Origin: Flavobacteriaceae bacterium
Lineage (GTDB): Bacteria; Bacteroidota; Bacteroidia; Flavobacteriales; Flavobacteriaceae
Reading direction: 5' to 3'
Assembly (NCBI GenBank): GCA_965224465.1
Contig: OZ245049.1
Coordinates: forward strand, 4,740,001-4,772,000
Length of the DNA: 32,000 nucleotides
Position 1 is the first letter of the stretch; every line of letters begins with the position of its first letter. Below, one piece after another: positions 3,348-27,465 of the stretch. The notes under the pieces were generated by a model, which saw only the letters and a program-made list of their open reading frames with translations, was not told the origin of the DNA and did not search any database. Position numbers and translations under genes: made by a program.

Positions 3348-3349
3348 TT

Positions 3350-4189: not shown

Positions 4190-4205
4190 ATACAAATACG
4201 AACAC

Positions 4206-4929: not shown

Positions 4930-4932
4930 TAT

Positions 4933-6501: not shown

Positions 6502-6545
6502 TCTTATATTAATATATTTGTCATCTGACCACTAAAAAACAAAAA

Positions 6546-6594: not shown

Positions 6595-6671
6595 CTTGTT
6601 TAAAAAGTGGTCAGATATTTTTTAAAACTGAAGGACTTTTTTTAATTCATTCCCCCAATGAATTTAGTTTT

Positions 6672-8915: not shown

Positions 8916-8917
8916 CT

Positions 8918-9199: not shown

Positions 9200-9212
9200 T
9201 ATTTATATTTAT

Positions 9213-9719: not shown

Positions 9720-11562
9720 TTTATGCCTAGTTGTTGAGTTAAAAGTGCTACTTGATACTTTAAATATGCGATTTCCTCTGAATGTAAATCTATAATTGCA
9801 ACTTTATATGTGTCCTTTTCAGAACCTGATACGAATGTTTTTAAATCATTATCTAACAACATATCCTGTGCTATTGGTGAAACATGACGCATTTTAGTAT
9901 CTCCTTCTATGAAATTAAAAGAAGCATATCTCGTATTTAATTTTTTTGGTGATAAATAAATGATATTCTTTTTTGCTCTACGGTCTGAGGTTCCTTGCCA
10001 TGATTGGCTGAAAACAGTCCCCTTTGATGTTACATCTCCTGAGAATGTAGCTCCATCTCTATGCAATCTAAGCCTCTCCTGCATGTTATTAAACCCGTTC
10101 CATGCATTAAATGAAATATCTGCATAATTAGATGGTGTTGCAATATTTGGCAACTCAAAAGAAATGTTAGCTACTGGTAAGCCCTGATTCCTGTTCCATG
10201 CTCGGAGTTTGAATAAAACATCACCACTTGCTGCTCCTATCCCTTTACCTGTTAACTCATTGTCTAATGTAACGTTCCCTAAAAATGCAGCATTACCACT
10301 AAAGTCAATACTTGCCTTTACTTGGTCCGAATTATTTAAAAATTGCAATGTACTACCAGATGTTTTAATATTGTAAGAATTTCCTGAGGGGTCTTTTATT
10401 GCTAATAAATTAGGTATTATTATAGCTGCTGTTATTTTTCCTGAGAACACCCCATTATTAGCGTCAAAATCTCCAGTAGAGAATTTGCCTGTTACCCTAT
10501 TTATATTAAAACCTTGCCCAATATATGCTCCTGTATTTGAAAATCTATTTACAACAAAATCATCACCTGCACCTCCTAAAATCATATCCCACTTCTTAAT
10601 AGGACCTCCCGACCTTTCTGTAAAAGTTAATCCTGAACTGCCTCCTACGTAAATACCTTTAGACGTAACGTAATTTGCCACAAAATCAACGTCTGATTTA
10701 TTAAAATTCCCTGAGTGATAATACTTATTAGATAATAAAATACCGCCTTCAGAAATACTTCCTCCAGTCTTAATATTCACACTACCAAAATCTCCTCCAG
10801 TTCTTAGCAAAGAATTTGCGGTGGTATCAGATTTTATAGTATCTAAATTAATTATTGCAGAAACGCTTATAAAATTAACTTTAGCCTGTGATGCATCCGT
10901 AAAGGCATTAGTATCAGCATTGCTTTCATATTTAATTTTTATTGATGCAGCGGTTTCAGCAGTGCTTTTTCCTTGCTGTAAAATCCACTCATTATCCGTA
11001 TTGTCCCATATATAAGATTCTACATCTGAACCAATACCCGCATCTACATAGGCATAATTACCTTCTATACCCACAGGGATAGTTGTTCTTAATGCCGTAA
11101 TATTTGGAAACTGCCCTTTAAAATGAGGTGCTTCTAAACCTGCTAATTTTGTTTTTTCGGCATCCGTAAACCCATTGGTATTAGGTTCTGCCTCATATAA
11201 AGATTTTATTTCATTTCCTGTTTGATCTGCGGTGGCTAATTTCTCAATACTTTGTAATTTCAATATTAAATCGTTTGTAAAATTATTTTCAGACAAGCCT
11301 TGTCCGACAATTTTATCAACCTTTAAAATATTATATGCATCAAATTCAGCCTGTAAACCATCTATCATAGACATCGGATGGGATTGAGGATGTATATAAT
11401 TTGACAAGTTTTTTAGCTTTGTAAGTAAAGTCCCTGTAAAATTATTTTCAGAGAGTCCTTTCCCATCAATTTTATCAACTTTATTATCAAGTGTGTTTTG
11501 TAAATTGGTTATATAATTAATGTTTTGATTGGGGGGTAATGTTGGTACAGCAATCTCACGTG
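9716..11562 (-). pseudogene. Tail fibre with a C-terminal peptidase-S74 intramolecular chaperone domain, 5'-truncated by IS21
   Basis: S74 signature TSDRRAKKNIIYLS...HVSPIAQDM...KVAIIDLHSEEIAYLKYQVALL. Fibre repeats are present (KVDKI.G.GLSENNFT twice; NGFTDAEKTKL; NAFTDASQAKV). The reading frame stays open upstream of the listed TTG (11407) right up to the IS21 end at 11563, with no start codon. Confidence 0.8.
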
Positions 11563-12686
11563 GATATTCCGGAGCAAGCTGCCCCCTCTACCGGGACTCA
11601 AAAAAGATGTAATTACATACTGACGTTCTGACGTATGTTGACCCCCTCTAAAATTATCGGATTAATATTCCGGAGCATATTGACCCCTCTAATTATTAAG
11701 AGAGCTCATTTTTGTAACGGAGCATGTTGATCCCCTAAATAATTTTGGTTTTACTTAGTGGTAATTAATCACTAAATGAGAATAGATGGCAGGTAAATCA
11801 ACACGTATGAGTCTCGTAAAACAATTATTAAGAATGCACCACAATGGCATTGGTATTAAAACCATTGCAAGAACACTTTGTGTGAGTAAAAACACCGTTA
11901 AAAGCTATATTTTAAAAGTCAAAGACAGCGGCATTCCATTCGAAAATTTATTAAAACTAGAAGATCCTTTATTAGAAAAAGCATTGCTCGCTGGAAACCC
12001 AGCCTATAAAGATCAACGCTATGAAGTTTTAAAGGATAAGTTGGGCTATTATGCCAAAGAACTCACAAAGATTGGTGTAAACCGTGTGGTTCTGTGGGAT
12101 GAGTACAAAGCAGAGTTCACCCCCAACTATTATAGTTATAGTCAATTTTGTGATCATTTACGCCAATATCGTCGCAGTAGTAAACCATCGATGGTTTTAG
12201 ATCATCATCCTGGAGACAAACTTTATATTGATTACGCAGGAAAAAAGTTGTCTTATATTGACATTGATACAGGGGAAATAATAGATGTTCAGGTATTTGT
12301 AGCCTGCCTTCCTTATTCTGATTATTGCTTTGCTATAGCTGTTCCAAGTCAGAAAACAGATGATTTTATTATGGCATTACAATGCTGTTTAAAAGATATA
12401 GGAGGCGTACCACAAACACTAGTCCCCGACAATCTTAAAGCTGCCATAGTAAAGGCTAGCAAATTATGAGCCAACAGTAAATAAAGTGCTTGAAGATTTT
12501 GCGAACCATTACAATACCACTGTAACCCCTGCAAGATCTAGAAAACCACAAGACAAAGCATTGGTTGAAAACCAAGTAAAGCTAATCTACAGTAGGGTTT
12601 ATGCTAAGTTACGCAATCAGCAATTTTTATCATTATCATCACTTAATACAGCCATAAAAACATTGGTTAAAGCTCATAATCAAACT

Positions 12687-13810
12687 TAAATTCAAGTAGT
12701 AAATGCAACTTCTTAGATTTGAGAGTTTCTAAGGTTTATTTTTCAAAACAGAAAGAGAGTCACCTCTCCTTCATGTTTTGATGGAATAGTTACCTTACGC
12801 CCTCAAGTCTCTGAAAAAGAAGTAGTATGGCACATTTAACCAAAGAACAAAGATACACAATTACCTGTATGTTATCACAGGGGTATTCTAAGTCCAAAAT
12901 AGCCTTGGCTATAGGGAAACATAAAAGCACTATAAGTAGAGAATGCAAACGTAATTGCGATGCTCGTAGCGGCTCCTATGAATACGAATTAGCACATAGA
13001 AAGTGGAAGGATAGACATAAGAAAAAGCGAAAGCACATTAGGTTTACTGAGAAGATAAGAAGCGAGGTTGAAAAGCTGTTACGTGATGATTATAGTCCAG
13101 AACAAGTGGTTGGAATACTTACTAAGCAAGGAAAAGAAGTTGTTTCAGTAGAACGTATTTATCAGCATATCTGGCAAGATAAGAAGCATAAAGGCACACT
13201 CTATACTCATTTAAGAAGACAAGGAAGGAAGTACAGGAAACGAGGGGCATTCAAGGACTCACGTGGTATTATTAAAGATCGAATTAGTATTGAAAAACGA
13301 CCAGATATAGTGGAGAAAAGAGAACGTTTTGGAGATTTAGAAGTGGATTTAATAATTGGAAAAAATCATCATCAAGCCATTCTTACAATCAATGACAGGG
13401 CTTCTGGGATGCTAAAGATGAAAAAAATAGCATCTAAAGAATCTTCTGTTGTAACAGCTGCTATTAATGAGCTTTTAGAAGATTGGATACCGTATATAAA
13501 CACTATAACAGCTGATAACGGAAAAGAGTTTGCAGGACATAAAAAAGTAGCTGAATTTTTAGGAATCGATTATTATTTTGCACATCCTTACCATTCATGG
13601 GAAAGAGGATCTAATGAAAATTTAAATGGGCTTATTCGGCAATATTTCCCTAAAGGAAGTGACTTTTCGATATTAACTAAGCAGATGATAAAACAGGTGG
13701 AAGGAAAATTAAATAGAAGGCCTAGGAAAAGGTTTTCATATCAAAACCCTATATTTGTAATGAATCAATTATTGTTTAACCAAAAAGTTGCGTTTATAAG
13801 TTGAATTCAG
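12687..13810 (+). mobile_element. IS30-family insertion sequence nested inside istA
   Basis: Imperfect ~25-bp inverted repeats (taaattcaagtagtaaatgcaactt / aagttgcgtttataagttgaattcag). The element is flanked by direct repeats caaact at 12681..12686 and 13811..13816. Boundaries are +/-1 bp. Confidence 0.8.
12827..13804 (+). CDS. IS30-family DDE transposase
   Basis: 325-aa ORF with an N-terminal HTH region (LTKEQRYTI...GYSKSKIALAIGKHKSTISRE) and a C-terminal DDE core (GDLEVDLI...ITADNGKEF...SWERGSNENLNGLIRQYFPKG), the IS30 pattern. Confidence 0.85.
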   Translation: MAHLTKEQRYTITCMLSQGYSKSKIALAIGKHKSTISRECKRNCDARSGSYEYELAHRKWKDRHKKKRKHIRFTEKIRSEVEKLLRDDYSPEQVVGILTKQGKEVVSVERIYQHIWQDKKHKGTLYTHLRRQGRKYRKRGAFKDSRGIIKDRISIEKRPDIVEKRERFGDLEVDLIIGKNHHQAILTINDRASGMLKMKKIASKESSVVTAAINELLEDWIPYINTITADNGKEFAGHKKVAEFLGIDYYFAHPYHSWERGSNENLNGLIRQYFPKGSDFSILTKQMIKQVEGKLNRRPRKRFSYQNPIFVMNQLLFNQKVAFIS

Positions 13811-14500
13811 CAAACTAGAATGCAACGCAAGGATTACTCTAGAGAAGAAAAATTTATAGCTGATGAGCAACATACTTTAGCGGCTTTGCCAACTACTGAT
13901 TTTGAAGTAAAATATTATAAAAGCTTAAAAGTAGCTCATAATAATCACATCTATTTAGCTTCAGACAAGCATTATTACAGCGTTCCTTACATTCATATAG
14001 GAAAACAGGTTAGGGTGATTTACACACGTAGCTTAGTTCGTGTTTATTACGATAATGAGCAGATAGCTGTACATCCAAGAGGACTGAAAAAATCAGGATA
14101 TACTACAACAAGTGCACATTTATGTTCAGAACATCAGTATTATAAAAAACGAAGCCCAACCTATTATTTACAAAAAGCATATCTTCATTCTGAGGAGTTG
14201 TACCTATTTCTAAATGGATTATTTAAGCAGGACAAGTACCCTGAACAGCTTTATAGAACCTGTGATGGCATTTTAAACTTGTCTAAAAAAACAGATCCAA
14301 CAGAATTTATAAAAGCCGTCAAAATAGCCCAAGAAAACAATAATTACTCCTATGGTTTTTTAAAACGAATACTAGAAAATAAGATGACAGAAAATACAGA
14401 ATCTGCATCTTCAAAACCACTATCTGATCATAAGAATATCAGAGGAAAAAAACACTATAAATAAGCGTTTAAATGTATAATTACTAAATTTTAAATAAAG

Positions 14501-15220
14501 ATGAACAACATTGAAAACAAGTTTAATCAACTACGACTGCTAGGAATGTCTACCCAATGGGAGGCCTTAAAAGAAACACGTCAGCATCATGATTTATCAC
14601 TACCAGAGGGCTTAGAAATATTGCTACAAGCTGAACAATTAGATCGAGAAAATAGGCGTTTTGAACGCTTAAAACGAAGTGCTAAGTTTAGATATAGTGC
14701 CAGTATAGAGGAGTTAAACTTTGAAACCTCTAGAGGCTTAAATAAATCACAAGTGACCGAGCTTGCAACGGGAAACTACATTAAAAACGGAGAGTCAATA
14801 CTTCTAACAGGCTCCACTGGATGTGGTAAAAGCTTTACAGCATCGGCATTGGGACACAGAGCATGTTCTCAAGGAGTAAAGGTGTTATACTATAATCTTC
14901 AAAAACTACTCATCATTATTAAAATGGCACGTATTGATGGAAGTGTTTTTAAGTTATTGGAGAAAATATCAAAATCTGGATTATTGATACTCGACGATTT
15001 TGGAATAACTCATTTAAATAACCAGCAACAAATGGATTTAATGGAACTAATTGAAGATCGACACGGAAAATCATCCACCATAATAGCGAGTCAATTACCC
15101 GTGGAAAACTGGTATGAAATCATCGGAGAAGCAACCATAGCAGACGCCATTTTGGATCGATTAGTACACCGCTCTCACCGAATAGAATTAAAAGGAAAAA
15201 GTCTAAGAAAAAAACTGTAA
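14501..15220 (+). CDS. istB: IS21 helper ATPase IstB
   Basis: Walker A LTGSTGCGKSF and Walker B LLILDDFG, plus the typical C-terminus ADAILDRLVHRSHRIELKGKSLR. Confidence 0.9.
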   Translation: MNNIENKFNQLRLLGMSTQWEALKETRQHHDLSLPEGLEILLQAEQLDRENRRFERLKRSAKFRYSASIEELNFETSRGLNKSQVTELATGNYIKNGESILLTGSTGCGKSFTASALGHRACSQGVKVLYYNLQKLLIIIKMARIDGSVFKLLEKISKSGLLILDDFGITHLNNQQQMDLMELIEDRHGKSSTIIASQLPVENWYEIIGEATIADAILDRLVHRSHRIELKGKSLRKKL

Positions 15221-15304
15221 CTTTGTCAGTATCTCATTTTTAAGACCAAAATCTACAGAGGGGTCAACATCACCGGAATGAGGGGTCAACATCATCGGAA
15301 TATC

Positions 15305-15472
15305 TAATGTATAAGTAATTGCTTTTCCTAGTGGACTTTTCGGTAAGCTTCCTTGGGTATTATGGATCAACCATTTTATAAATGTATCCATTATTGGTTG
15401 TGCTTTATCTAGGCGATAAGCATGCCGTTGCTCAGGAGTAAATTCCTGGTTTTTACAATGTCGTTCTATCCA
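15305..15472 (-). mobile_element. Internal fragment of an IS66 tnpC gene (~170 bp), cut on one side by the IS21 end
   Basis: Near-identical in reverse complement to 21700..21866 of the complete IS66. It encodes ERHCKNQEFTPEQRHAYRLDKAQPIMDTFIKWLIHNTQGSLPKSPLGKAITYTL, against ...CKKQEF... in the full copy. The inner boundary (~15470) is approximate. Confidence 0.8.
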
Positions 15473-16004
15473 AATTGGAGGTAATGATAGAGCTGGTGCT
15501 ACCTTTACTTCTGCCAATATTACAAGAGTAACCATCCAAACCTCATTCCGTCAATTTTTATGGTATGAAGATCAATATGAATATCAGTCTTTTATAGTAG
15601 ACACACGTACAGGTGCTTATGAAGAAATTCCTTTTGAAGAATTAAGAGGGGAAGTTAATATTGTAAAAGAAGAAGGTAGTATTCCTAGAACCGAAACAAG
15701 CATACGTATACCTGAATGGGTACATGAGAAAAGGAAAAAACATGAATATAGGTTTACTATTTTTCAACTAGTATTTGTATGTAGATTGCTACTAAATGAA
15801 CAACATAAAAAATATTATCCACATACTTATGTAGGCAAAGATCGCTATATGGGTATAAAAATGCAATTATCACAATCTAGAACTCATAATTTTAAAAACA
15901 TGAATGGATTACTATTCCCTCCGAAACCAACCGAGTTTAAAGGGTATTATCATAAAAATGTAGAGGTAGATACTCTAGATAAACTACTCAAGTTTCGCAC
16001 TTAG
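15473..16004 (+). pseudogene. 3' portion of an uncharacterised toxin-like gene (paralog of 18408..19271). It has lost its 5' part and its last 13 codons are displaced by the IS4 insertion
   Basis: The frame of the listed 15786..16004 ORF is open back to ~15473 with no start. After in-silico removal of the IS4 element the reading continues ...VEVDTLDKLLKWAKEPVLNI* (17565..17601) and stops 4 nt before the ATG at 17606. It shows weak colinear similarity to the C-terminus of 18408..19271. Confidence 0.6.
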
Positions 16005-17559
16005 ATAGATTTACGCAACCTCTTGATAGTTAAGCTTGTGGGTATTCACTAGGAATCCAAAATCTTCAATATTCGCTATTATTTTACGTGTAACCATTTC
16101 AACATCAATAGATTCAATCATCTTTTCCAAAATGTCAATCACCAAGCTGATAACTGCTAATATCCTGATGTTTAGCTTATTCTCTATATAATCTTGTTTT
16201 AAATCTTTAAACAAGCCTCCTATAGTTTCGTAGGCTTCCATTCTATATCGAATACTGGTGAGTAAATATTGAACCATTATAATGCTTATTTGTGCGATTT
16301 GAATATCGAAATTAGTAGACTGACATTTTCCAAGACCAAACAACTGCTTAGCTTCTTTAAAAAACACTTCTATGGACCATCTGATACTGTATATTTCAAT
16401 AGCCTTTACAAATTTCAGTGTTGTATCCGTTGATATTAACGTGTGCCATTTGCCATTCTTTCCACGTTTTGAAATAAATACAGCAACCTTAAGACCATCA
16501 ATTTCAGTTATGTAATGATGGTAGTAATAATTGAATTTACGGCATCGTTTTGGTTTTATTTTCTGTTTTTTGAGTTGTGACAACGTTTTTATCTTTGATC
16601 GAACTTCAATCTTACTGTTGTATTTATACATCCCAATAATATGAGTTGAACTACTAATGTTCCGTAGCTTTCTAAGTAATTTAACACTTGTAAACCAGGT
16701 GTCTATTAAGATGTAATCTATGGGGATTTTACGTTTTACAAGCCTTGAGAACATTTGAACTAGCAGGTCTGTTTTCTTTTTATTGAGTTCCTGATACCTC
16801 TTTGCTGCAATTGTTTTACTACATCTTGGAGTTTTCTTTTGAAGCCTACGTTGCTTCGCCGTTAGACCGTATTTTAATTTTGATGTTTTACTTTCACGAT
16901 GCAAACTAAAGTCAACAGGGATAAATACACTTCCATTCCAATAACCAGCTACAAGTAGCTTAAAGCCTAGGTAATACGTTTTTGACACATGGTTGTATAT
17001 TTTTGAAACACCTTCAATTGTCTTTCCTGTTTTAGAAAGATCAGTATCGTCAAAGATCAAGCACTTTGTAGCGTCTTGAGATGGAGTAAAGAACTCTTCT
17101 TTTAATAGATATTGCTTCACAAACTGAGCTAGAAAAACCCTCCAATTTATCTTTTGATTTGCTAGGATTCGATAGTATGAATCTTTACCCGACTGACCTA
17201 ATCCCTTGTCTTTACTACTTGTAAGTCCATGAATAGAATCAAATCCGATAATAGGTAAAATTAAAAGTGTAGAGATTAAATTACCGAATGAAATCCCCGA
17301 TTTCTTACACCAACTAAACTTGTTTTTAATTTTATTGAATCCTAAAATATTTAGATGTGCTTGTAGGTATTCTGAACTAAGCCAAATCTTATTAAATTTT
17401 CCTTTTATCTCCTGTGTTTTTGTGATATCTTCGTGTTCTAGCATGTTTTGTACTTTCTTGTTCGTACTTAAAAGTACAATAAAACCAGGGGATTACCTTG
17501 GTTTTCATGCTATTTATTTTTACTTAAACACCTGTAAATGATGGGTGCGAAACTTGAGT
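15986..17559 (-). mobile_element. IS4-family insertion sequence (1574 bp)
   Basis: Perfect 15-bp terminal inverted repeats: actcaagtttcgcac (15986..16000) and gtgcgaaacttgagt (17545..17559). They are flanked by a 5-bp direct repeat aaact (15981..15985 and 17560..17564). Confidence 0.9.
16011..17444 (-). CDS. IS4-family DDE transposase
   Basis: 477-aa ORF with the Y(2)R(3)E(6)K signature YSIRWSIEVFFKEAKQ and DDE-region blocks (LIFDDTDL, ILIDTWF). Confidence 0.85.
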   Translation of the reverse strand: MLEHEDITKTQEIKGKFNKIWLSSEYLQAHLNILGFNKIKNKFSWCKKSGISFGNLISTLLILPIIGFDSIHGLTSSKDKGLGQSGKDSYYRILANQKINWRVFLAQFVKQYLLKEEFFTPSQDATKCLIFDDTDLSKTGKTIEGVSKIYNHVSKTYYLGFKLLVAGYWNGSVFIPVDFSLHRESKTSKLKYGLTAKQRRLQKKTPRCSKTIAAKRYQELNKKKTDLLVQMFSRLVKRKIPIDYILIDTWFTSVKLLRKLRNISSSTHIIGMYKYNSKIEVRSKIKTLSQLKKQKIKPKRCRKFNYYYHHYITEIDGLKVAVFISKRGKNGKWHTLISTDTTLKFVKAIEIYSIRWSIEVFFKEAKQLFGLGKCQSTNFDIQIAQISIIMVQYLLTSIRYRMEAYETIGGLFKDLKQDYIENKLNIRILAVISLVIDILEKMIESIDVEMVTRKIIANIEDFGFLVNTHKLNYQEVA

Positions 17560-17605
17560 AAACTATTAAAATGGGCTAAAGAACCCGTATTAAATATATA
17601 AGTCT

Positions 17606-18301
17606 ATGGCAAAAATTAAAAAGCGTTTTGGTAAATGGGGAGGTTATTTGCCACATTGTATTGATGGACGACCTACAATAGATATAAAAAAAGAAGAAAT
17701 GGATGGAGAATATTATATTAAAGCTAATGATGAGTTTTTTATAATGAATAATGATTTATTTGGTAATATATATCTATATATAGGGTTAGCCCTTTATTTC
17801 TTTATGTTATTAACAATAGCAATAAGACTTTCTGCAGATAAAGATGTTGGTTTTATTTTTTTATTTTTTTTATTTTCTTTTGGAACATTATCTATCATAT
17901 ATAATTATACAGCTCCAGTAAAAAAGATTATTTTAGATAGACTCAATGGGATCGTTACTTTTCCCAACTTTTTATGGGGCAAACCTATTTGCATGCCTTT
18001 TAAAGATATGTTGGTAGCATGGTCAGTAAAAAATTCAGGAATCAACCCTTCAGGACCTTCGCTTTCTGCTTTTCATCCCAACGGTTTTTTTAGCACCGAT
18101 ATTATGGGGGCAGATGTGTTGGAAGATTGGTATTTTATAGTATGGTATATGGATAAAAACCGTCCTTTACCTCCGGGTACTGCTTTTGATGAATATCGTG
18201 AGAAAGATTATCTGCGAAGAAAATCTGAAGGCTTTCCAGAAGGGTTATATCCTTGTAGTATTCATATTCCAGAATACAAGCCTTCAAAAAAAAGAAAGTA
18301 A
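17606..18301 (+). CDS. 2-TM membrane protein, candidate immunity partner (copy 1)
   Basis: 231-aa ORF with two hydrophobic helices (~IYLYIGLALYFFMLLTIAI and GFIFLFFLFSFGTLSII). Conserved C-terminal motifs GIVTFPNFLWGK, WYMDKNRPLPPG, RRKSEGFP and PCS are shared with the split gene 19265../22413... It starts 4 nt after the restored stop of the upstream gene. Confidence 0.6.
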   Translation: MAKIKKRFGKWGGYLPHCIDGRPTIDIKKEEMDGEYYIKANDEFFIMNNDLFGNIYLYIGLALYFFMLLTIAIRLSADKDVGFIFLFFLFSFGTLSIIYNYTAPVKKIILDRLNGIVTFPNFLWGKPICMPFKDMLVAWSVKNSGINPSGPSLSAFHPNGFFSTDIMGADVLEDWYFIVWYMDKNRPLPPGTAFDEYREKDYLRRKSEGFPEGLYPCSIHIPEYKPSKKRK

Positions 18302-18407
18302 AAAACAAAGAATTGTAACTCTTATTAATTAGAAAATAATATGATAACTATTAAGAATTGTTAGTGTCTTTAATAAACGTGATGTTGATGCCAGTATTGC
18401 TTGGGGA

Positions 18408-19271
18408 TTGGCAGGTGTTGCTTTTACAGTAAGTACTGCGGCAGGTATTTGGGGAGGAACTGTTTTTTTATTATCAGGGCCTGTAGGTTGGATTGCCTTA
18501 GGGATTGGTTTAATAGGAGTGGTTTTAGCAAATGTTTTTATAGACACAGACTTGGAATTCTATTTTAAACACTTTTTATTATCCGATCATAAAAAATTAC
18601 CTATTGGTAATAACAGTCCTATGGCATACAACCGTCTTGTCTATAAAAGTATTGAGACTTTAGTAGAGAGTGAGGATGACGACATTAAAAATAGCCTAAT
18701 GTATCCTGAGGATGCTATTGCTAGTTTACACGATCTTACGGTATGTACCAGCATTAATTACTATGTAGAAAACATGAAAATGAAATTTGCAGGCAGACGT
18801 GGTAGAAGTACGGGGTATTATGTAAGTAGTTTTGGTATTACTATGAATTTTAATCATTTTTTATACGATGTAAATCAATTAGAAGCAAAAGGTATGATAG
18901 TGCGTCATACCTGGGTTAATAGTATTGGAAGTAATGCCGAAGAATTTAATTTAATATTAAAAGATGCCAAAATAATAAGCATGAAAAATGGACAACAACA
19001 ACTTTTAGTAATTGTAGCAATACCTTACGAAAAAAGAAAATTAATAAAAGACGATAAAGATTTAGAAATGGTACTAGCCATACGTGTAAGAATTAATAAA
19101 GAGAAAAACCATTACTTCCCTTACAGACTACTAGACAAACCTGAACGCTATATTGGTGCTAAATTTAAGTTATATAAAAACATATACACTAATTCAGGGG
19201 AAAATAACACAGATAATCAAAATTTAGTTTTTGATACCTTAGCGAACTTAAAACTTGATAAAACATGGTAG
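18408..19271 (+). CDS. Gly-zipper membrane protein with a ~240-aa C-terminal domain of unknown function, toxin candidate (copy 2)
   Basis: The N-terminus GVAFTVSTAAGIWGGTVFLLSGPVGWIALGIGLIGVVLANVFI has GxxxG-type small-residue repeats. The only in-frame start is TTG at 18408, while the frame is open from 18348 (...KRDVDASIAWGLAG). The stop overlaps the next ATG by 7 nt. Confidence 0.55.
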   Translation: MAGVAFTVSTAAGIWGGTVFLLSGPVGWIALGIGLIGVVLANVFIDTDLEFYFKHFLLSDHKKLPIGNNSPMAYNRLVYKSIETLVESEDDDIKNSLMYPEDAIASLHDLTVCTSINYYVENMKMKFAGRRGRSTGYYVSSFGITMNFNHFLYDVNQLEAKGMIVRHTWVNSIGSNAEEFNLILKDAKIISMKNGQQQLLVIVAIPYEKRKLIKDDKDLEMVLAIRVRINKEKNHYFPYRLLDKPERYIGAKFKLYKNIYTNSGENNTDNQNLVFDTLANLKLDKTW

Positions 19272-19686
19272 ATGCGACTTTTAATTACAAACGCCCTATA
19301 ACCCATACCCAATACAAACATGGAGATAAAGAAACCAAAAAAGGAGGATTTAGCAGAATGCTGACTATGCGTATAACAGATGACATGCATGTTATGAAAA
19401 AAAGTGATGTAGGTACTAAAGGGGGCTTTCCTTTTGCTACAGATGTTTTTTTAAAATGCCCTGTTGTTCCTAAGATAATGCCTTTATGGTTGGGTAGCGT
19501 ATTTTTATTTTTATTTTGTATTTATGTATATCTTACACCAAGTGACAAAGACAATGGCGATTATATATTATTTTATTTAATAACTTTTCTTTCTTTTCTA
19601 GGATTTTTGTTTTTTGCAACCTATTATTTTACGATGCCAACAAAAGAGCTTATTTTTAATAGAGCGGACGGTTTGGTTACTTTTCC
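19265..19686 (+). pseudogene. 5' part of 2-TM membrane protein copy 2, interrupted by IS66
   Basis: Two hydrophobic helices, then ...KELIFNRADGLVTFP at the insertion point. The listed ORF tail YPSDHPHIF* is read from the IS66 left end. Confidence 0.75.
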
Positions 19687-19744
19687 GTATCCGTCCGACC
19701 ATCCCCATATTTTTTAGTGGAAAAATAGCTTCTATTTTTGACGC

Positions 19745-20053
19745 ATGAGAAAAAACGAAGAAAAACGAGCCTATATGACAGCTGTTGTTTCCGATTGGAA
19801 GTTGAGTGATTTAACCTTGGAAGATTATTGTAAAAGTCATAAAATTACACTTTGTAAATTTAGGTACTGGAATAAGAAATTGACCTCCAAAAATGCCAGT
19901 GGATTTTCAAAGGTTGAACTTATTGATGCTCCTATTGAAAACAGCAGAAATTCTATTTTAGATAGTTTTAAAATCGAGTATCCAACAGGTGTAAATTTGG
20001 TCATTAACAAAGAGATTACACTTATCGATTTACAAAATTTAATTCATTTGTAA
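19745..20053 (+). CDS. tnpA: IS66 accessory protein TnpA (orf1)
   Basis: 102-aa first ORF of the IS66 unit, abutting tnpB (stop at 20053, next ATG at 20055). Confidence 0.75.
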   Translation: MRKNEEKRAYMTAVVSDWKLSDLTLEDYCKSHKITLCKFRYWNKKLTSKNASGFSKVELIDAPIENSRNSILDSFKIEYPTGVNLVINKEITLIDLQNLIHL

Positions 20054-20054
20054 T

Positions 20055-20396
20055 ATGCTAAATCTTTCAAGTGAACTTGATTTTCATCTGTACCTAGAAC
20101 CCACAGATATGCGTAAAGGATTTAATGGTTTGTCAGGTGTTATCCGTAATAATTTAGAAGAGGATCCTAGTAATGGAGCTGTTTTTATCTTCATAAATAA
20201 ACCTCGAAACAAAATAAAACTATTGCATTGGCAAGCAGGTGGATTTGTACTGTATTATAAACGATTGGAACGAGGTACTTTTGAACTTCCGGTGTATGAT
20301 AATCTGAAAGGAAGTATACAAATGAAATACAGCCAAATGGTGATGCTTCTTGATGGACTGTCTATAAAAAACATCCAACAAAGGAAACGTTATTAA
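20055..20396 (+). CDS. tnpB: IS66 accessory protein TnpB (orf2)
   Basis: 113 aa with the characteristic pattern PTDMRKGFNGLSGVI...GAVFIFINKPRNKIKLLHWQAGGFVLYYKRLERGTF. Confidence 0.85.
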   Translation: MLNLSSELDFHLYLEPTDMRKGFNGLSGVIRNNLEEDPSNGAVFIFINKPRNKIKLLHWQAGGFVLYYKRLERGTFELPVYDNLKGSIQMKYSQMVMLLDGLSIKNIQQRKRY

Positions 20397-20464
20397 TGTC
20401 TTTTTACAGGTAAAAAACCTAATAAAACCAGGCTGTTCATGTATATTTTTCGTATATTTAATGT

Positions 20465-22150
20465 ATGGAAAAAGACTTAGAACAGCTATCAAAAAAAGCA
20501 CTTATAGCCCTATTACAGGAGGCTAATTCTAAGTCAGATTTACTTATCAAAAAGACAAATTCTCTTAGCTCAAAGAATGAGTTACTTAATACAAAGACAA
20601 GTTCTCTTAGCGCAAAGAATGAGTTACTTACTATAAAGACAAAAGACGTTACTTTACAAAAGGCTATCCTAGAAGCTCAATATAAAGAATTAGAGACAAA
20701 ATACGGATATGGACAATTTCAATTAGAGCAATTACGTCGTATGATTTTTGGGACAAAACGTGAGCGTTTTATAATGGCTAATAACCCTTTTCAAATGCAA
20801 CTCCCTTTCGAAGTTTTAAAAGAGATGCCCCAGGAAGAAGAAGCTCCTGTAAACATTACATATCAACGTAAAAAGGCTAAAAAAAGAACGATTGGAAGTT
20901 TAAATCTCCCCAGTCATTTACCTGTTGAAATTATTAATTTAGAGCCTAAAGAGACTATAGAGAACCGAATAAAAATAGGTGAAGAAATTACAGATAAATT
21001 AGAACTTGTACCCACAAAGCTATACATAAAACGATATGTCAGACCAAAATACGCCTTAAAAAAGAAAGTACAAGACACATTGATTGACAATGGAAACCCT
21101 TTAGGTATTAAGACCGTTATTATGGCTGATTTACCAAGTTTTGCTATTGAAAAATCTGTAGCATCAAACAGCCTGCTAGCACAGCTATTGATTGATAAAT
21201 TCTTAGATCACTTACCGTATTATCGACAGATAGAACGTTTTAAACGAGAAGGAATCTCTATAAGTTCATCTACAATAAATGGATGGCAAAACAGCTTAGG
21301 ACACTTACTTAAGCCGCTGTATCAGGCTATGAAAAACACGGTGCTGTCACAAGGATATGTACAGGCCGATGAATCAACTATTCCAGTGCTAGACAAACAG
21401 AAAAAAGGAAAAACTCATACTGGATATCATTGGGTGTACTATTCACCCATACAAAAAATGGTATTGTTTGATTATCGTCCCTCTAGATCTAAACATGGAC
21501 CTAGAGAAATGCTTAAAAACTTTAAAGGGTATTTACAAACAGATGGCTACGCTGTATATGATGAATTTGCACATAAAAAAGATGTCACTTTAGTAGGGTG
21601 TATGGCACATGCACGTCGTTATTTTGAGAAAGCACTAGACTATGACAAAGTAAAAGCGAGTCATGCGATGGTACTCATTCAACAATTATATGCCATTGAG
21701 CGACATTGTAAAAAACAGGAATTTACTCCTGAGCAACGGCATGCTTATCGCCTAGATAAAGCACAACCAATAATGGATACATTTATAAAATGGTTGATCC
21801 ATAACACCCAAGGAAGCTTACCGAAAAGTCCACTAGGAAAAGCAATTACTTATACATTAAAACGATGGGACTACTTAAAAGCCTACCTGTATGACGGTAC
21901 TTTAGAACTAGATAATAACCTAGTAGAAGGATCTATCAGAACATTAGCTATTGGACGTAAAAATTATTTATTTGCAGGTAGCCATGATGCTGCAAAAAAT
22001 GCAGCGATGTTCTATTCCTTTTTTGGGACTTGTAAAAAACACCAAGTAAACCCCTATAAATGGATGAAAAAAATACTGGATATAATCCCTGATTACAATG
22101 CTCAAAAATTAAGTGAGCTATTTCCACAAAATTTAAACCTCGATCAATAA
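20465..22150 (+). CDS. tnpC: IS66-family DDE transposase TnpC
   Basis: 561 aa. N-terminal coiled coil, LRRMIFGTKRERF, LPYYRQIERFKREGISIS, ADESTIPVL, LQTDGYAVYD, GCMAHARRYF and DNNLVEGSIRTLAIGRKNYLFAGS are all typical IS66 TnpC blocks. Confidence 0.9.
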   Translation: MEKDLEQLSKKALIALLQEANSKSDLLIKKTNSLSSKNELLNTKTSSLSAKNELLTIKTKDVTLQKAILEAQYKELETKYGYGQFQLEQLRRMIFGTKRERFIMANNPFQMQLPFEVLKEMPQEEEAPVNITYQRKKAKKRTIGSLNLPSHLPVEIINLEPKETIENRIKIGEEITDKLELVPTKLYIKRYVRPKYALKKKVQDTLIDNGNPLGIKTVIMADLPSFAIEKSVASNSLLAQLLIDKFLDHLPYYRQIERFKREGISISSSTINGWQNSLGHLLKPLYQAMKNTVLSQGYVQADESTIPVLDKQKKGKTHTGYHWVYYSPIQKMVLFDYRPSRSKHGPREMLKNFKGYLQTDGYAVYDEFAHKKDVTLVGCMAHARRYFEKALDYDKVKASHAMVLIQQLYAIERHCKKQEFTPEQRHAYRLDKAQPIMDTFIKWLIHNTQGSLPKSPLGKAITYTLKRWDYLKAYLYDGTLELDNNLVEGSIRTLAIGRKNYLFAGSHDAAKNAAMFYSFFGTCKKHQVNPYKWMKKILDIIPDYNAQKLSELFPQNLNLDQ

Positions 22151-22164
22151 ATCGAGGTTTTTTT
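22135..22164 (+). terminator. Hairpin + T-run spanning the tnpC stop, inside the IS66 right end
   Basis: Stem cctcgat (22138..22144) / atcgagg (22151..22157), loop caataa, followed by ttttttt. The same structure recurs in the solo right-end copy, ending near 22365. Confidence 0.6.
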
Positions 22165-22205
22165 ATGTATTTTTAATTCCTATACGTACTTCGTCGGACG
22201 GATAC

Positions 22206-22404
22206 TGTTCTATTCCTTTTTTGGGACTTGTAAAAAACACCAAGTAAACCCCTATAAATGGCTGAAAAAAGTACTGGATATAATTCCTGATTACAATGCG
22301 CTAAAATTAAATGAGCTATTTCCACAAAATTTAAACCTCGATCAATAAAATCGAGGTTTTTTTATGTATTATTAATTCCTATACGTACTTCGTCGGACGG
22401 ATAC
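22206..22404 (+). mobile_element. Solo 3' end (~199 bp) of a second, slightly diverged IS66 copy, directly abutting the complete element
   Basis: 22206..22404 parallels 22009..22205 with a few substitutions (KWM>KWL, KI>KV, AQKLSE>ALKLNE) and one extra A. It ends in the same IR gtcggacggatac (22392..22404). Confidence 0.85.
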
Positions 22405-22412
22405 ACTTTTCC

Positions 22413-22773
22413 TGGGTTTATGTGGTGTAAAAACATAACGATGCCTATACATAAGATAATATTTTCTATGTCATCACCTAGTATTCAGGGAGGAGGTGCT
22501 TATATGTTGCAAATTGTACGACCAGACAGGACGTATTCCTTGTATTTATGTACAAGGGGCTATAGTTGTTATGAAGATTTATCATCTTATTTATGGTATA
22601 TGGATAAGAATAGACCATTACCTACGGGGGAAGGTTTTGATCCGTGTCGTTTACAAGATTTTGAACGTAGAAAATCTGAGGGTTTCCCTAAGCCATTATT
22701 TCCTTGTAGTTTTGAAACTCCAGAAGCTACGCTTGAACAACAGGCAGAACGTGAGCGTATTGGCGGTTGGTAA
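22413..22773 (+). pseudogene. 3' part of 2-TM membrane protein copy 2
   Basis: Joining 19686 to 22413 (one copy of the 8-bp duplication removed) reads ...GLVTFPGFMWCKNITMP...YLWYMDKNRPLPTGEGF...RRKSEGFPKPLFPCSFETPE... in frame. This is colinear with 17606..18301. Confidence 0.75.
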
Positions 22774-23179: not shown

Positions 23180-24061
23180 TTATTTCCAAATATTAGAATC
23201 ATCTAAATTTTTTACATCCTTACGTTTTAAGAAACCCGAAGTTATAACTTTACCATCAAAATATACTTGTACTCCTTTATCTCCCATACTTTCTAGGTAA
23301 GCAATATCTCCCTTTACTAAAAAGGCTTTTCTTATTTTTTTTAACTCGTAATCGCTATAAAAATAAGTTTTATCTGCTATTACTTTTATTTTTTTAGAAA
23401 ACCCTATTATATTATATTCTTTTATATAATCTTTTTTGTCTTTTTTTGATTGTTTTTTGATAAAACTAAATACAACATTATTAAGGACATCTTTTTTATA
23501 AAATGTAGCCGTTGTGTCCTGTATATCAAACCTTCCATAGTAAATTGTTTCGTACATGTAATTTGACGACAGTGTTGTTTTGTAAGATTTTAAATCTGAT
23601 CTATATAGCTGGTTTTCATCAAAACGTATTTTGGTTAATAAATTATCGTTTATTTTTTTATTTGCATAAATCAGGTATTTGCCTTGATTTTTTAAATCAT
23701 TTGTTTTAAGGTTTTTAATAGGTATTTTTATTTTATTTATAAAACCAATATAACCAAACTCTAAGTGTGTAAAATCATTAACTCCATCACAAACTCCTTC
23801 AACACATATAATTTCTAGTACTTTATTATTATTAATAACCCTATATGCTTTTGTCATATTAATATCTTTTTCTCCATTCCAAATACCTTGTATCAATTCT
23901 AAATCAAAGGTGTTTTCAGATTCAGTGTTTGTATTTATAATAGAATCTTTTTTCTTCTCTATAACTATTTCTTCTGTAAGTAGTTTTTTATGTACTTTAT
24001 TATTACACGATACTGCTAACAGTAAAATTGTGAAAAGTATTATTTTATTTTTCATCTTCAT
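23180..24061 (-). CDS. Lipoprotein, candidate immunity protein for the LysM/GH19-like effector
   Basis: 293-aa ORF overlapping the upstream stop by 17 nt. Signal peptide with lipobox AVSC then NNK. Confidence 0.6.
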   Translation of the reverse strand: MKMKNKIILFTILLLAVSCNNKVHKKLLTEEIVIEKKKDSIINTNTESENTFDLELIQGIWNGEKDINMTKAYRVINNNKVLEIICVEGVCDGVNDFTHLEFGYIGFINKIKIPIKNLKTNDLKNQGKYLIYANKKINDNLLTKIRFDENQLYRSDLKSYKTTLSSNYMYETIYYGRFDIQDTTATFYKKDVLNNVVFSFIKKQSKKDKKDYIKEYNIIGFSKKIKVIADKTYFYSDYELKKIRKAFLVKGDIAYLESMGDKGVQVYFDGKVITSGFLKRKDVKNLDDSNIWK

Positions 24062-26639
24062 TGCTTAAAATTTCATATGCTTTTTTAGTGTATTTTTTTC
24101 TATCATCTAATCCATTATCACCCCCATTAACATCCTGAGTAACACTAGTAATAATAGCGTTTGTTATTCCTCCATCACATTTTGTATTTGTTGTTTTTGA
24201 AGAGTCTATCCAAATAATCATAGATGCTCTCATTGCAATATCTACATCCGTTTTTAAAAGAGAAATGTCATCGTTCATAAAATCCTTAGGATCCTTAGGA
24301 TATAGTTTTTTCCATTCGTCGTTTAACAGTTTATATTTATTTTTTCCTGTTAAATGTATAAATCCAACTCCGAAGTAATCTGAACCATCTAAAGTTGATT
24401 TATTACCATTATCCATTCTACATCCATATACATAATCAAAAAGAGATTTACTTTTTACATAACTCGATTTTATTGTATATAACGCTTTGAATTCCGCATA
24501 TGACCAAGAAGCTTTCCCCGCAGTTTTTGTTACTTCAATAGGATTTGTCACGCCTCTTTTATGTCCATGATTTTTCTGGGATGACGTTGTAGGATTGGTA
24601 TATTCACAAGTTAAATCTGCATTATAGCCATCTATTAAATCATGATATTTAAAAGTATATTTCCCAGAGGCAGTTGGATGGCTTATTAAAACTTTTCTTA
24701 AGAAGATATTATATATTGTCTTAGCACTATAATTATAATTCTCTTTTAATTGATTTAATTGACCTGTTTCTGCTCCAATTTGTCCTATAAAGTGAGAAAG
24801 ACGGTTAATGTTATTTATTTTGAACTTACATTTATGTTTATTAATCGCCTCAGATACTTCTTTTCTTCTTCCTTCTTTTGAGTCAGTAAAAATCTGTTTT
24901 AACATTTCAGGAGTAACTTCTATACAACAGTTTCCTTTTTTCACCTCAAACTCCTCACCCTCCAAAAACACAAGCTCATGCCGTTTATCTTCCCCTTTAG
25001 AAGTTACTTTTAGGTAGAGTTTTGCTACTTTATCATCCTTAAACTCCTCTTTCTGCTTCTTAAACTCGGCTTCACTTTTTTTACGGAGTTTTATTTTTAC
25101 TTTGGCTTGTCCGCTATCATCAAAAATAAGGTTTTCTAGTTTAGTAACTTCTGTATCATCTTTTAATATGGTCAAAGGTTTTTCTTCTTCGGCTAATAAT
25201 GGGGCTTTTTCATAGATTTCTATACTGCATTTTTTGCCTTGTAGGTTGGCACTTTCTACAACTAACCAAACCTCGCTTCCAATACTTATGGTTTCTATAC
25301 GCTCGTACACAGTTTCTGTTGCTGCTTTGGGTGTTTCTTCTTTTTTTGTGGTGGTAGTGGTGGTTTCTTTGGGTATTACGGTATTGTCTGGTAATATAAT
25401 TTCTTGATTAATGCGCAATGTCCAAGGAGCATAAATTTTATTATCACTTCCTAGTTTTTCCCAGTTGGAGATGCCATATTTCTCTGCTATTTTAGAAAGG
25501 CTTTCGTTACTTTTTACAGTATGTATCTTTTCTTGTTTTTTTTCTATTGAGTCTTGTACCGTAGCATCGGTTATGGTCTGTTGCTTTGTTTGTTTTGCAA
25601 AATAGGCTGCTGTTATTTTTTCTTTGGTGCTTAGGTAAAGTAACCTTCCAAATTTAGCTTGGTAACCTCTGGTTTGTCTTTCACTTGGTAGGGCATAGAA
25701 CAACTCTAATGGGTCGGATTCCCAAATACCTTCGCGTTGTTTTTTGTAATCTTCGCTATCTTGGTCTGGGAGTACTAATTTTTTATAAGTACAGCGTTCT
25801 GTAATTTTAAAGCGTACATCTTCGTTCATGCAAATTGTTTCATCATTACTGTTGATATTCCCCATAAATGATATGCCTTCTTCCCATAATTCACTTATAA
25901 TTTCCCTACCTGACATTCCTAAGGTTTTTACACACATATATACGGTGTCCTTATAGCCGACAGTTTTATTGGTTATTTTCTCTCTTTTGTCGTTGGTCCA
26001 ATAGCCTTCTGTAATTTCGGGAGGGGCTTTTACGGTGGTAGCTACAGTACTTCCATTTGCTTCTTTTTTTATGTCAGGGTTGCGTCGGTAAGCTTCTATA
26101 TGTATATTGTAACCATCTAGCCATTTAGAGAACTTTACGGTGAGTTTTGTTTTTTGATTTGTTTCGTCACCTCCAATTTTCACATAGGTAATGCCATGTT
26201 TCATTATGGCTTCGGTACGTTTCTTGGGGTCGGCAATATCCATAAAATCGGTCTTACTATCGGCTTGTCTTTTTGCGCGACCATTTATTCCATTACAGAG
26301 TTCAAAATATTTTAAAAGGTTGTTTTTTATTTCAACATCAGGCATGTGAAATATCCACTTAAACTTGGTTTTATCTTTTACTAAGTCTTCTTTATTTTCT
26401 TTTTTTCCATTATACAGCGAAAAACCGGTTACCTCATAAATTGCTTCTTCTCCTGATTGTATGGTTTTGGGACCAGTTACCTTACTGGGGTAATAACTGC
26501 CATTGGTAGATGCTTCTGGGAGACCATTGTTTACCATTACTGTGTTGGCAGTACCAAGTATTCCTTGTACTTCTTCTAAAAGTGCATTATACCTATCAAA
26601 TGTTCGAGGACTTTGAGCTATTTTTTTTATTTTAAACAT
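24045..26639 (-). CDS. Large leaderless protein with a LysM domain and a C-terminal glycoside hydrolase family 19-like (lysozyme/chitinase-fold) domain; cell-wall-degrading effector candidate
   Basis: LysM-like segment HTVKSNESLSKIAEKYGISNWEKLGSDNKIYAPWTLRINQEIILP (~aa 370-417), then a Thr-rich linker TTTTTTKKEETP. The C-terminal domain has LSHFIGQIGAETGQLNQLKENYNYS and YFGVGFIHLTGKNKY, matching the GH19 phage-lysin pattern (..Q..hE(S/T)g...E.. and G.G.iqlTG..NY). There is no N-terminal signal peptide. Confidence 0.7.
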   Translation of the reverse strand: MFKIKKIAQSPRTFDRYNALLEEVQGILGTANTVMVNNGLPEASTNGSYYPSKVTGPKTIQSGEEAIYEVTGFSLYNGKKENKEDLVKDKTKFKWIFHMPDVEIKNNLLKYFELCNGINGRAKRQADSKTDFMDIADPKKRTEAIMKHGITYVKIGGDETNQKTKLTVKFSKWLDGYNIHIEAYRRNPDIKKEANGSTVATTVKAPPEITEGYWTNDKREKITNKTVGYKDTVYMCVKTLGMSGREIISELWEEGISFMGNINSNDETICMNEDVRFKITERCTYKKLVLPDQDSEDYKKQREGIWESDPLELFYALPSERQTRGYQAKFGRLLYLSTKEKITAAYFAKQTKQQTITDATVQDSIEKKQEKIHTVKSNESLSKIAEKYGISNWEKLGSDNKIYAPWTLRINQEIILPDNTVIPKETTTTTTKKEETPKAATETVYERIETISIGSEVWLVVESANLQGKKCSIEIYEKAPLLAEEEKPLTILKDDTEVTKLENLIFDDSGQAKVKIKLRKKSEAEFKKQKEEFKDDKVAKLYLKVTSKGEDKRHELVFLEGEEFEVKKGNCCIEVTPEMLKQIFTDSKEGRRKEVSEAINKHKCKFKINNINRLSHFIGQIGAETGQLNQLKENYNYSAKTIYNIFLRKVLISHPTASGKYTFKYHDLIDGYNADLTCEYTNPTTSSQKNHGHKRGVTNPIEVTKTAGKASWSYAEFKALYTIKSSYVKSKSLFDYVYGCRMDNGNKSTLDGSDYFGVGFIHLTGKNKYKLLNDEWKKLYPKDPKDFMNDDISLLKTDVDIAMRASMIIWIDSSKTTNTKCDGGITNAIITSVTQDVNGGDNGLDDRKKYTKKAYEILSNEDEK

Positions 26640-26802
26640 AGTTTTATCCTATTATATTTTTAAAATTACTAGCTGTGATTGATTGCAGGAATACAAACAC
26701 TTCTAATTGATCTTACGATCATTCTCACTTTACTCTTATTTTTTACATCATGAATTTTACCTTGAGATAAATTCATTTCTCAACTTATTTTTGTATAAAC
26801 TG

Positions 26803-27102
26803 TTATGCTAAACCCAATTTACTTTGTATCCAAAACAGTACATCTCCTCCTTTGATCATAAGTAAGGATATCAATATGTATAGCGCTATTAAAATAATAG
26901 CTTTAAAAAACAACTTTATTTTAGTATTCTTTTGAAGTATATAATAGTTTATAATCAAAAACAGTATTGATGCTATTATACTAGCTGGTATTCCAGCTCC
27001 CCACACTACAAAAGCATGATCTTCATACAGAAACATAAACCCTAATGTAAGCGTGAATGAAGAAACTATAATAAAAAGTATTCTATAAATAAATATTTTC
27101 AT
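26803..27102 (-). CDS. Small 3-TM membrane protein, paralog of 27165..27464 (immunity candidate)
   Basis: 99 aa. It shares MKIF..., SILF(L/F)LI(N/D)YY(I/Y)L.K and its overall hydropathy pattern with the neighbouring 99-aa protein. Confidence 0.55.
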   Translation of the reverse strand: MKIFIYRILFIIVSSFTLTLGFMFLYEDHAFVVWGAGIPASIIASILFLIINYYILQKNTKIKLFFKAIILIALYILISLLMIKGGDVLFWIQSKLGLA

Positions 27103-27164
27103 GTTACTTGTTTTTATATTTTATATTTTTCCCTAGACTAGAAATGTTATCTCCTTTTACCACA

Positions 27165-27464: not shown

Positions 27465-27465
27465 C

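Follow-up and report, generated by a model that had tools for sequence, protein, structure and literature searches.

Probable 3′ remnants of VasX-family toxin genes and their membrane immunity-type partners in a degraded locus of a marine Flavobacteriaceae-like genome

The question raised by positions 15,473–22,773 of a 32,000-nucleotide stretch of a Flavobacteriaceae bacterium genome (assembly GCA_965224465.1, contig OZ245049.1, positions 4,740,001–4,772,000; hereafter the window) is what is encoded by four co-oriented reading frames that have been broken up by insertion sequences. The initial annotation described an uncharacterised two-gene cassette present twice, A1-B1-A2-B2, in which A is a membrane protein with a Gly/Ala-rich hairpin and B a partner with two transmembrane (TM) helices. 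Reading frames were restored by in-silico excision of an IS4-family and an IS66 element, and the proposed order was confirmed. The A1 remnant (15471–15986 + 17566–17601, plus strand) comprises 183 amino acids (aa), its second part contributing the last 11 codons and the stop. B1 (17606–18301, plus strand, 231 aa) is uninterrupted and lies 4 nucleotides (nt) 3′ of the A1 stop. A2 (18408–19271, plus strand) comprises 287 aa counted from a TTG codon, and B2 (19265–19686 + 22413–22773, plus strand, 260 aa) is in frame once IS66 is excised. Both pairs are as tightly coupled as first described, with stop + GTCT + ATG at the A1/B1 junction and a 7-nt overlap of the A2 stop with the B2 start. B1 and B2 are indeed paralogs (40% identity over 172 aa, E = 1e-33), each with two hydrophobic (TM) helices and the motifs G[IL]VTFP, WYMDKNRPLP, RRKSEGFP and PCS, and the weak similarity of A1 to the A2 C-terminus was reproduced (24% identity over 122 aa, pairwise E = 4e-6).

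The evidence set out here indicates that A1 and A2 are very probably the 3′ ends of two diverged VasX-family type VI secretion system (T6SS) effector genes, and not small stand-alone genes. By sequence comparison, the region as a whole is in all likelihood a degraded effector–immunity locus of the VasX (BTH_I2691/Bte2) T6SS pore-forming family in a marine Flavobacteriaceae-like genome. With A2 as query, a word-index search returned two close relatives only. A hidden Markov model (HMM) of the A sequences gave 124 matches against 1.84 billion representative proteins. About half of these are proteins of 990–1335 aa that align only at their extreme C-terminus, and the remainder are short fragments. 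N-terminal delivery domains in full-length A homologs had been proposed as a point to check, and Pfam VasX_N (PF20249) scores above the gathering score in 8/8 sampled long matches. Two matches, including a 1073-aa protein of Aquimarina sp. SS2-1, carry the NCBI name 'toxin VasX'. By the Pfam criterion, the full-length relatives belong to the VasX family. The A units, which the initial annotation could place in no known family, correspond to the 3′ ends of effectors of ~1000–1100 aa. Pfam and NCBI both have a name for this family, experimental work on it exists, and the description as an uncharacterised cassette is not supported.

The genomic setting of the full-length relatives points in the same direction. 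In Tenacibaculum, a 1083-aa VasX_N toxin gene belongs to an operon of the order TssD (Hcp)–VgrG–PAAR–260-aa gene–toxin–B–B–B, and Capnocytophaga copies sit within a TssN/TssC/TssD/TssR cluster. Among 40 full-length-toxin loci, a PAAR homolog is found in the flanks of 30 and a VgrG homolog in 19. When PDB sequences were searched with a full-length toxin profile built from 32 full-length proteins, Ptx2, a VasX-family toxin of solved structure, was matched (9qpv_A, E = 3e-9), as was a 'VasX N-terminal region' protein of 996 aa (9r8g_A, E = 0.005), the latter being probably Tke5, as judged by length and molecule name only. A weak match of the NCBIfam model BTH_I2691_fam to the full-length relatives extends through the hydrophobic hairpin.

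A1 is 58% identical to residues 901–1083 of the 1083-aa Tenacibaculum protein (E = 3e-74) and matches the full-length toxin profile at positions 892–1042. Its toxin homology begins at 15462. After excision of the IS4-family element, A1 ends in ...VDTLDKLLKWAKEPVLNI followed by the stop codon, matching the Tenacibaculum toxin C-terminus ...VDTLNNLLVWAKDLILNI and stop. By homology, A1 is the last 183 codons of the gene for a VasX-family T6SS toxin of ~1083 aa, the 5′ ~900 codons of which are gone. A2 is 40% identical, over its full length, to residues 802–1077 of the toxin open reading frame (ORF) in an Aquimarina locus (L050) and 29% identical to residues 777–1072 of the Tenacibaculum toxin, and it matches the full-length profile at positions 746–1046. 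The TTG at 18408 is its sole canonical start. Homology to relatives starts ~14 codons 5′ of this TTG, at ~18366 (FNKRDVDASIAWGL), directly after in-frame stops, and neither an ATG nor a GTG start is present. Because the homology extends 5′ of the TTG up to these stops, A2 is a 5′-truncated fragment, which by alignment corresponds to the final ~300 codons of a VasX-family effector gene of a second subtype. A tblastn search of the window with the full-length toxin found these two 3′ fragments only. The closest relative of A2 is itself an orphan, on a marine metagenome contig (L002, 3–4351), where it follows M23 peptidase and lipoprotein-like genes. Next come a B2-type gene with a frameshift and a longer B paralog (323 aa) that has an additional C-terminal domain, so this orphan module is also found in another effector-island setting.

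The two junction types are conserved in the relatives. In the Tenacibaculum operon, the toxin has the A1-like ...LNI end and stop, with a spacer of 3–4 nt before the ATG of B (type 1). The Aquimarina L050 toxin ends in ...TW and a stop that overlaps the ATG-GTA start of a B2-type gene by 7 nt, as in A2/B2 (type 2).

What remains of the two toxins differs in extent. A1 retains the predicted β-rich domain only, and A2 retains the last, strongly hydrophobic TM hairpin, linker helices and the predicted β-rich domain. Searches with Pfam and NCBIfam gave nothing above threshold for A1, A2, B1 or B2, the only matches being weak ones to bfi2_fam, and neither database gave a match to the N-terminal MIX/VasX_N delivery domain in A1 or A2. 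Lacking this domain, A1 and A2 are remnants and not functional effectors. The AlphaFold2 (AF2) model of A2 (mean predicted local distance difference test score, pLDDT, 85) comprises a helical hairpin (2–14 and 25–43), linker helices and a β-sandwich (113–276). This fold is consistent with, but not specific for, the architecture described for the VasX family, namely a MIX domain at the N-terminus, an extensive helical region with TM helices and a C-terminal immunoglobulin (Ig)-like/β-rich domain (PMC12718326, PMC12909789). Compared with the PDB by Foldseek, the A2 model retrieved only generic Ig-like matches, with E-values of at least 1e-3, and Kir-channel-like ones, and Ptx2 and Tke5 were absent among the 50 matches listed. 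The Kir-channel resemblance (two TM helices plus an Ig-like domain) was taken as coincidental.

The hydrophobic Gly/Ala-rich hairpin reported at the start of A2 is present, with one glycine-zipper-like match (STAAGIWGG); the gene start itself did not hold, as the homology begins upstream of the TTG. This hairpin corresponds to residues 775–819 of the Tenacibaculum toxin, where it is the strongest hydrophobic segment. Two weaker hydrophobic helices located 5′ of it in that toxin, together with the rest of the helical region, are missing from A2. In Tke5, the helical region 239–863 is necessary and sufficient for toxicity, and the β-rich C-terminus alone is non-toxic (PMC12909789). The ~240-aa soluble domain described for A2 corresponds to this non-toxic C-terminal domain and is not a toxic one. 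Because the delivery domain and most of the region that is toxic in Tke5 are missing, the A fragments are probably inactive as toxins. By analogy with the Tke5 C-terminus A1 would be non-toxic, and A2, having neither a delivery domain nor a proper start, is unlikely to be an active toxin.

The distribution of B was surveyed in species-representative genomes, which yielded 67 loci and 188 B genes that were mapped with HMMs according to what lies upstream. Nearly all loci are from Bacteroidota (Tenacibaculum, Cellulophaga, Aquimarina, Capnocytophaga, Zobellia, Olleya, Marinilabiliaceae, Dysgonomonas and others). Directly upstream of B lies a full-length toxin gene in 38/188 cases and a C-terminal toxin fragment in 28/188, so that 66 of the 188 B genes directly follow a toxin or toxin fragment. 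A further 89/188 follow another B gene, 26/188 have nothing within 400 nt, and 7/188 lie at a contig edge. Toxin–B adjacency, which had been suggested as a check on the pairing, occurs in 48 of the 67 loci. Toxin-tail fragments often precede B in these loci, with 5′ ends spread over positions 284 to 999 of the toxin profile. This spread argues for truncation and not for a gene with a defined start. The fragments range in length from 56 to 744 aa, many being without the hairpin.

These data bear on the initial reading of the locus, in which each pair is a self-contained two-gene toxin–immunity cassette and A is a complete small membrane toxin made of a Gly-zipper hairpin and a soluble domain. 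Short A-like ORFs followed by B do recur elsewhere, A2 is open for 287 codons from the TTG and tightly coupled to B2, and the ratio of nonsynonymous to synonymous substitution rates (dN/dS) of A2 against an orphan relative, P0121, is ~0.1. However, every well-covered A relative is the C-terminus of a ~1000–1100-aa VasX_N protein, the homology of A2 runs past its TTG into in-frame stops, and the scattered fragment ends and the behaviour of the separated Tke5 regions do not fit a complete small toxin. The two-gene cassette is already largely refuted, and we consider it very improbable. The broader idea behind it, a membrane toxin with a membrane immunity protein in diverged pairs, is upheld by the VasX homology and the linkage, and only the notion of A units as stand-alone genes is given up.

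The position and copy number of B are those of an immunity gene: B is considered to be one because it lies downstream of the toxin, forms arrays of up to nine paralogs and persists as a toxin-less orphan. In all, 696 B homologs are detectable, and the named ones are from Flavobacteriaceae. B1, of the type cognate to A1, is 63% identical to the gene directly 3′ of the Tenacibaculum toxin. Reconstructed B2, of the type cognate to A2, shares 54% identity with the immunity gene of Aquimarina and 45% with Tenacibaculum B250. The only family match of B is to NCBIfam bfi2_fam (B2, E = 8e-6; a Dysgonomonas homolog, E = 1.5e-9). We regard Bfi2 and Bti2, the immunity protein of Bte2, as one protein. Identities of adjacent toxin and B proteins correlate across loci (Mantel r = 0.3–0.56, p ≤ 0.002). 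The correlation with the toxin β-rich domain is no stronger than with the N-terminal part; the Mantel result is therefore silent on which part of the toxin is recognised by B. Protection by B would be expected from homology. B1, the only intact gene of the four, would act as an orphan immunity gene if expressed. The Bacteroidota-type −7 promoter motif TAnnTTTG was not found upstream of B1, A2 or B2, which is weak evidence.

The AF2 model of B1 (pLDDT 81) shows N-terminal strands, a TM hairpin (55–76/83–102) and a strand-rich domain with two helices, and the distribution of Lys and Arg, judged by eye, suggests that both soluble parts of B are cytoplasmic. Neither Foldseek nor sequence-profile searches of the PDB with B found a solved relative. 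The C-terminal tail of B (B1 residues 175–214; W.F..WYMDKNRPLPPG..FD.YR..D.ERRK.EGFP.PL) is near-invariant across genera, with a mean pairwise identity of 63% versus 23% for the remaining protein, and the TM part varies. A tail of this kind is unusual for an immunity protein and for an arms-race surface. Together with the lack of a solved structural relative, it could be taken to mean that B is an accessory factor for the toxin (a chaperone, adaptor or membrane-insertion helper) and not an immunity protein. Against this, the downstream position, the paralog arrays and the toxin-less orphans make up an immunity signature, and the sole family similarity of B is to the Bfi2 immunity model. Known adaptors of the family (DUF4123, Tap) sit upstream of the toxin gene (PMC12909789), and a predicted immunity gene is reported to adjoin every vasX-like gene examined (PMC12718326). 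An accessory role is accordingly considered highly improbable.

How two such tails came to lie in tandem is illustrated by L019 and L022, two contigs of one metagenome-assembled genome that are 99% identical except for one block. In L019, a 5.07-kb block replaces 1.3 kb in the middle of the L022 toxin gene and brings in the distal two thirds of another toxin gene together with three B genes. The 3′ end of the old toxin and its B are kept just downstream, as an orphan. This pair shows that orphans arise as by-products of the replacement of the resident toxin 3′ part. Sequential displacement leaving arrays of orphan immunity genes and effector remnants has been described for V. cholerae T6SS clusters (PMC5361080). 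In the window, A2-B2 has the make-up of such an orphan, being a 5′-truncated tail with a cognate-type immunity gene downstream of the A1-B1 pair. We infer that the original order was vasX (type 1)–B1, followed by an orphan module of A2 (the 3′ end of an older vasX of type 2) and B2. An incoming effector–immunity module would have recombined into the resident toxin gene, pushing the old tail and its immunity gene downstream. The later damage can be read from the sequence: in vasX type 1, an IS4-family element inserted 12 codons 5′ of the stop and the first ~900 codons were lost, probably through an IS66-associated rearrangement, and a second IS66 split B2.

The damage by insertion sequences is visible in the window itself. 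The IS4-family element (15987–17558, minus strand) has terminal inverted repeats of 14–16 nt at 15985–16000/17545–17560 and the flanking direct repeat TAAACTA. Including the second TAAACTA target-repeat copy, the insertion spans 15987–17565 on the minus strand, its insertion point lying 12 codons 5′ of the A1 stop, and the transposase (16011–17444) matches Pfam DDE_Tnp_1 and DDE_5. The IS66 element that splits B2 (19687–22404, plus strand; tnpA/tnpB/tnpC) has the ends GTATCCGTCCGAC/GTCGGACGGATAC and an 8-bp target duplication, ACTTTTCC, with copies at 19679–19686 and 22405–22412, and its genes match Pfam TnpB_IS66 and DDE_Tnp_IS66. The 3′ part of B2 beyond it (22413–22773) holds the conserved WYMDKNRPLP...RRKSEGFP tail. 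The right end of this IS66 is a tandem duplication with a period of ~199 bp (22008–22164 versus 22206–22362; 22149–22205 versus 22348–22404), which gives the element two copies of the terminal inverted repeat GTCGGACGGATAC. On the other side of the locus, an internal fragment of an IS66 transposase gene (15203–15469, minus strand) adjoins A1 and cuts its 5′ side. A 165-nt stretch of this fragment is 98% complementary to 21695–21859 of the intact IS66, it matches Pfam DDE_Tnp_IS66 at profile positions 185–238 only, and its orientation is inverted relative to the complete element. An IS21-type element adjoins the fragment in turn. The 5′ part of the toxin gene was probably removed by a deletion or inversion mediated by insertion sequences.

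Several observations weigh against the assignment to a degraded VasX-family locus. Neither a T6SS structural gene nor a toxin 5′ part was found in the 32-kb window; linkage to VgrG, PAAR, Hcp or a T6SS cluster is present in related loci and not here, where the 5′ side has been replaced by insertion sequences. The A2 portion itself has no direct sequence or Foldseek match to Ptx2 or Tke5, so that its link to these toxins runs via the full-length intermediates, and a profile of the A C-terminus only gave no match to PDB sequences. With bfi2_fam, B1 scores 15.9, B2 25.4 and the best Bacteroidales homolog 37.7 bits, compared with the curated equivalog cutoff of 350 bits (NF053700, Bfi2); by these scores, B is at most a remote relative of Bfi2/Bti2, outside the equivalog. 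Finally, dN/dS is ~0.10 for A2 versus its nearest relative, the orphan P0121 in marine metagenomes (69% identical), and in both a long frame has stayed open. From the low dN/dS, A2-type fragments could still be under selection and not be relics.

This last point also speaks for an alternative that regards A2-B2 as a silent cassette that is being maintained, or as a fragment with an activity of its own. It could be a recombination reservoir from which toxin C-terminus and immunity are switched, as in Rhs and CDI orphans, or give a hairpin-plus-β-domain product that helps immunity, for example as a dominant-negative partner of an incoming toxin. In addition to a frame that is intact across 300 codons and the low dN/dS, several orphans start near the same conserved motif (profile positions 738–747), and the hairpin is the best conserved part of the C-terminal third of the toxin and could serve as a homology arm. 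Capnocytophaga locus L014 (9896–15376; likewise L008) contains three tandem units of a 266-aa toxin-tail fragment and a 251-aa B with identical HMM scores. These are probably identical copies, and could represent amplification of an orphan module, possibly for immunity dosage. The spread of fragment lengths and the frequent loss of the hairpin are difficult to reconcile with a maintained module, as is the origin of orphans as displacement by-products in L019/L022. Moreover, dS between A2 and P0121 is saturated and nucleotide homology shows that their 5′ breakpoints differ, so most of their divergence may predate orphaning and the low dN/dS may date from the full-length-toxin stage. B2 itself is broken by IS66, and the window is without a full-length recipient gene. 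A maintained A2-B2 module is considered unlikely. The related and more general proposal, that orphan tails (hairpin plus β-rich domain, from an internal start) are kept together with B as a decoy or dominant-negative against incoming oligomers or as a specificity-switching cassette, is likewise doubtful. If such tails were functional, the near-invariant and probably cytoplasmic B tail would indicate a conserved intracellular partner or neutralisation step, which would be new for VasX-family immunity.

Under the reading as a degraded VasX-family locus, the MIX/VasX_N domain at the N-terminus of the intact toxin would have mediated loading on VgrG/PAAR, for delivery into the periplasm of a neighbour. 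The hydrophobic helices of the toxin, including the Gly/Ala-rich hairpin of the A2 type, would insert into the inner membrane and form ion-permeable pores that depolarise the cell, and B, in the inner membrane, would neutralise the cognate toxin. Ion-selective pore formation and membrane depolarisation are known for VasX, Ptx2, Tke5 and Bte2 (PMC12718326, PMC12909789), and homology suggests pore formation by the flavobacterial toxins as well. By the same analogy, the full-length relatives and B would work like VasX/TsiV2, Tke5/Tki5 and Bte2/Bti2.

Comparison with these systems places the locus among known weapons. As in the VasX/BTH_I2691 family (V. cholerae VasX, P. aeruginosa Ptx2 and P. putida Tke5, with the immunity proteins TsiV2 and Tki5), full-length A relatives have VasX_N, a length of ~1000–1100 aa, and a helical region with hydrophobic helices followed by a C-terminus predicted to be β-rich. 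VgrG/PAAR linkage and a membrane immunity gene directly downstream are also shared (PMC12909789). In contrast to these systems, the window contains 3′ fragments only, and the host is a member of the Bacteroidota, with a T6SS-iii type apparatus. In sequence, the A relatives resemble proteobacterial VasX-family proteins only in the N-terminal domain and, weakly, around the hairpin, and the related loci that were examined showed no DUF4123 adaptor. [quoted passage not shown] Bte2/Bti2 comes from the same phylum and shares the MIX domain, a helical region with TM helices, a C-terminal domain predicted here to be Ig-like and the adjacent immunity gene, and bfi2_fam is the only family matched by the B proteins. 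However, B is only remotely similar (16–38 bits versus 350) and has its own invariant WYMDKNRPLP tail. Rhs and CDI (contact-dependent inhibition) orphan toxin–immunity modules form comparable orphan arrays. The displacement arrays of V. cholerae resemble the locus in having a 5′-truncated tail with cognate immunity downstream of another pair, and arrays of immunity paralogs (PMC5361080); they differ in that the present host belongs to the Bacteroidota and that the locus has been broken further by IS4, IS66, IS21 and IS30-like elements, with loss of the leading toxin gene. The locus is a degraded example of a known weapon type, an ordinary rather than a new system.

For annotation, these comparisons mean that short 'hypothetical' ORFs of marine Flavobacteriaceae with a Gly/Ala hairpin, when followed by two-TM WYMDKNRPLP proteins, can be read as VasX-family tails with their immunity genes. 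Such proteins are currently unnamed: the four proteins of the window are without a Pfam family, and the homologs listed are without a precomputed Pfam domain. The B family could be defined as the flavobacterial counterpart of Bti2. The arrays, including the before-and-after pair L019/L022, extend effector displacement from Vibrio to Bacteroidota. The current understanding of how VasX-family toxins work is unchanged by these findings.

Rearranged copies occur elsewhere in the surveyed loci. In Cellulophaga algicola CP002453 (L001), the toxin is split into a 622-aa VasX_N ORF and a 515-aa ORF. At 11531–12220 and 15656–16471 of this locus, the first 78 residues of a PAAR-like 229-aa ORF are 70% identical to the N-terminus of the B2-type protein encoded downstream of the toxin, and the remainder matches the Tenacibaculum PAAR protein from residue 68. 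The shared N-terminus was rejected as a trait of B; that a deletion produced a B::PAAR chimera is the more likely origin of the PAAR gene.

Within the window, nested insertion sequences occupy 11786–15535, 5′ of A1. The IS21-type element has its istA split into 11786–12469 and 13820–14464 by an IS30-like transposase gene (12827–13804), and its istB lies at 14501–15220. The suggestion that the locus belongs to a toxin island is supported by other candidate effector/immunity pairs on both sides (47–5484 and 23180–29205). Two CHAP-domain proteins (1068–2555, which also matches TIGR02594, and 4285–4929) are each followed by a small ORF, and an 864-aa LysM protein (24045–26639, minus strand) is overlapped by a lipoprotein-like 293-aa ORF (23180–24061). 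A 579-aa protein (27466–29205) has weak α/β-hydrolase (lipase-like) matches. The gene run at 5650–11407 (minus strand) contains Gp10_C, Phage Tail Collar and, with a weak E-value, Peptidase_S74 chaperone domains and is tail-fibre/baseplate-like; it may represent the remains of a prophage or belong to a contractile injection system beside the toxin genes.

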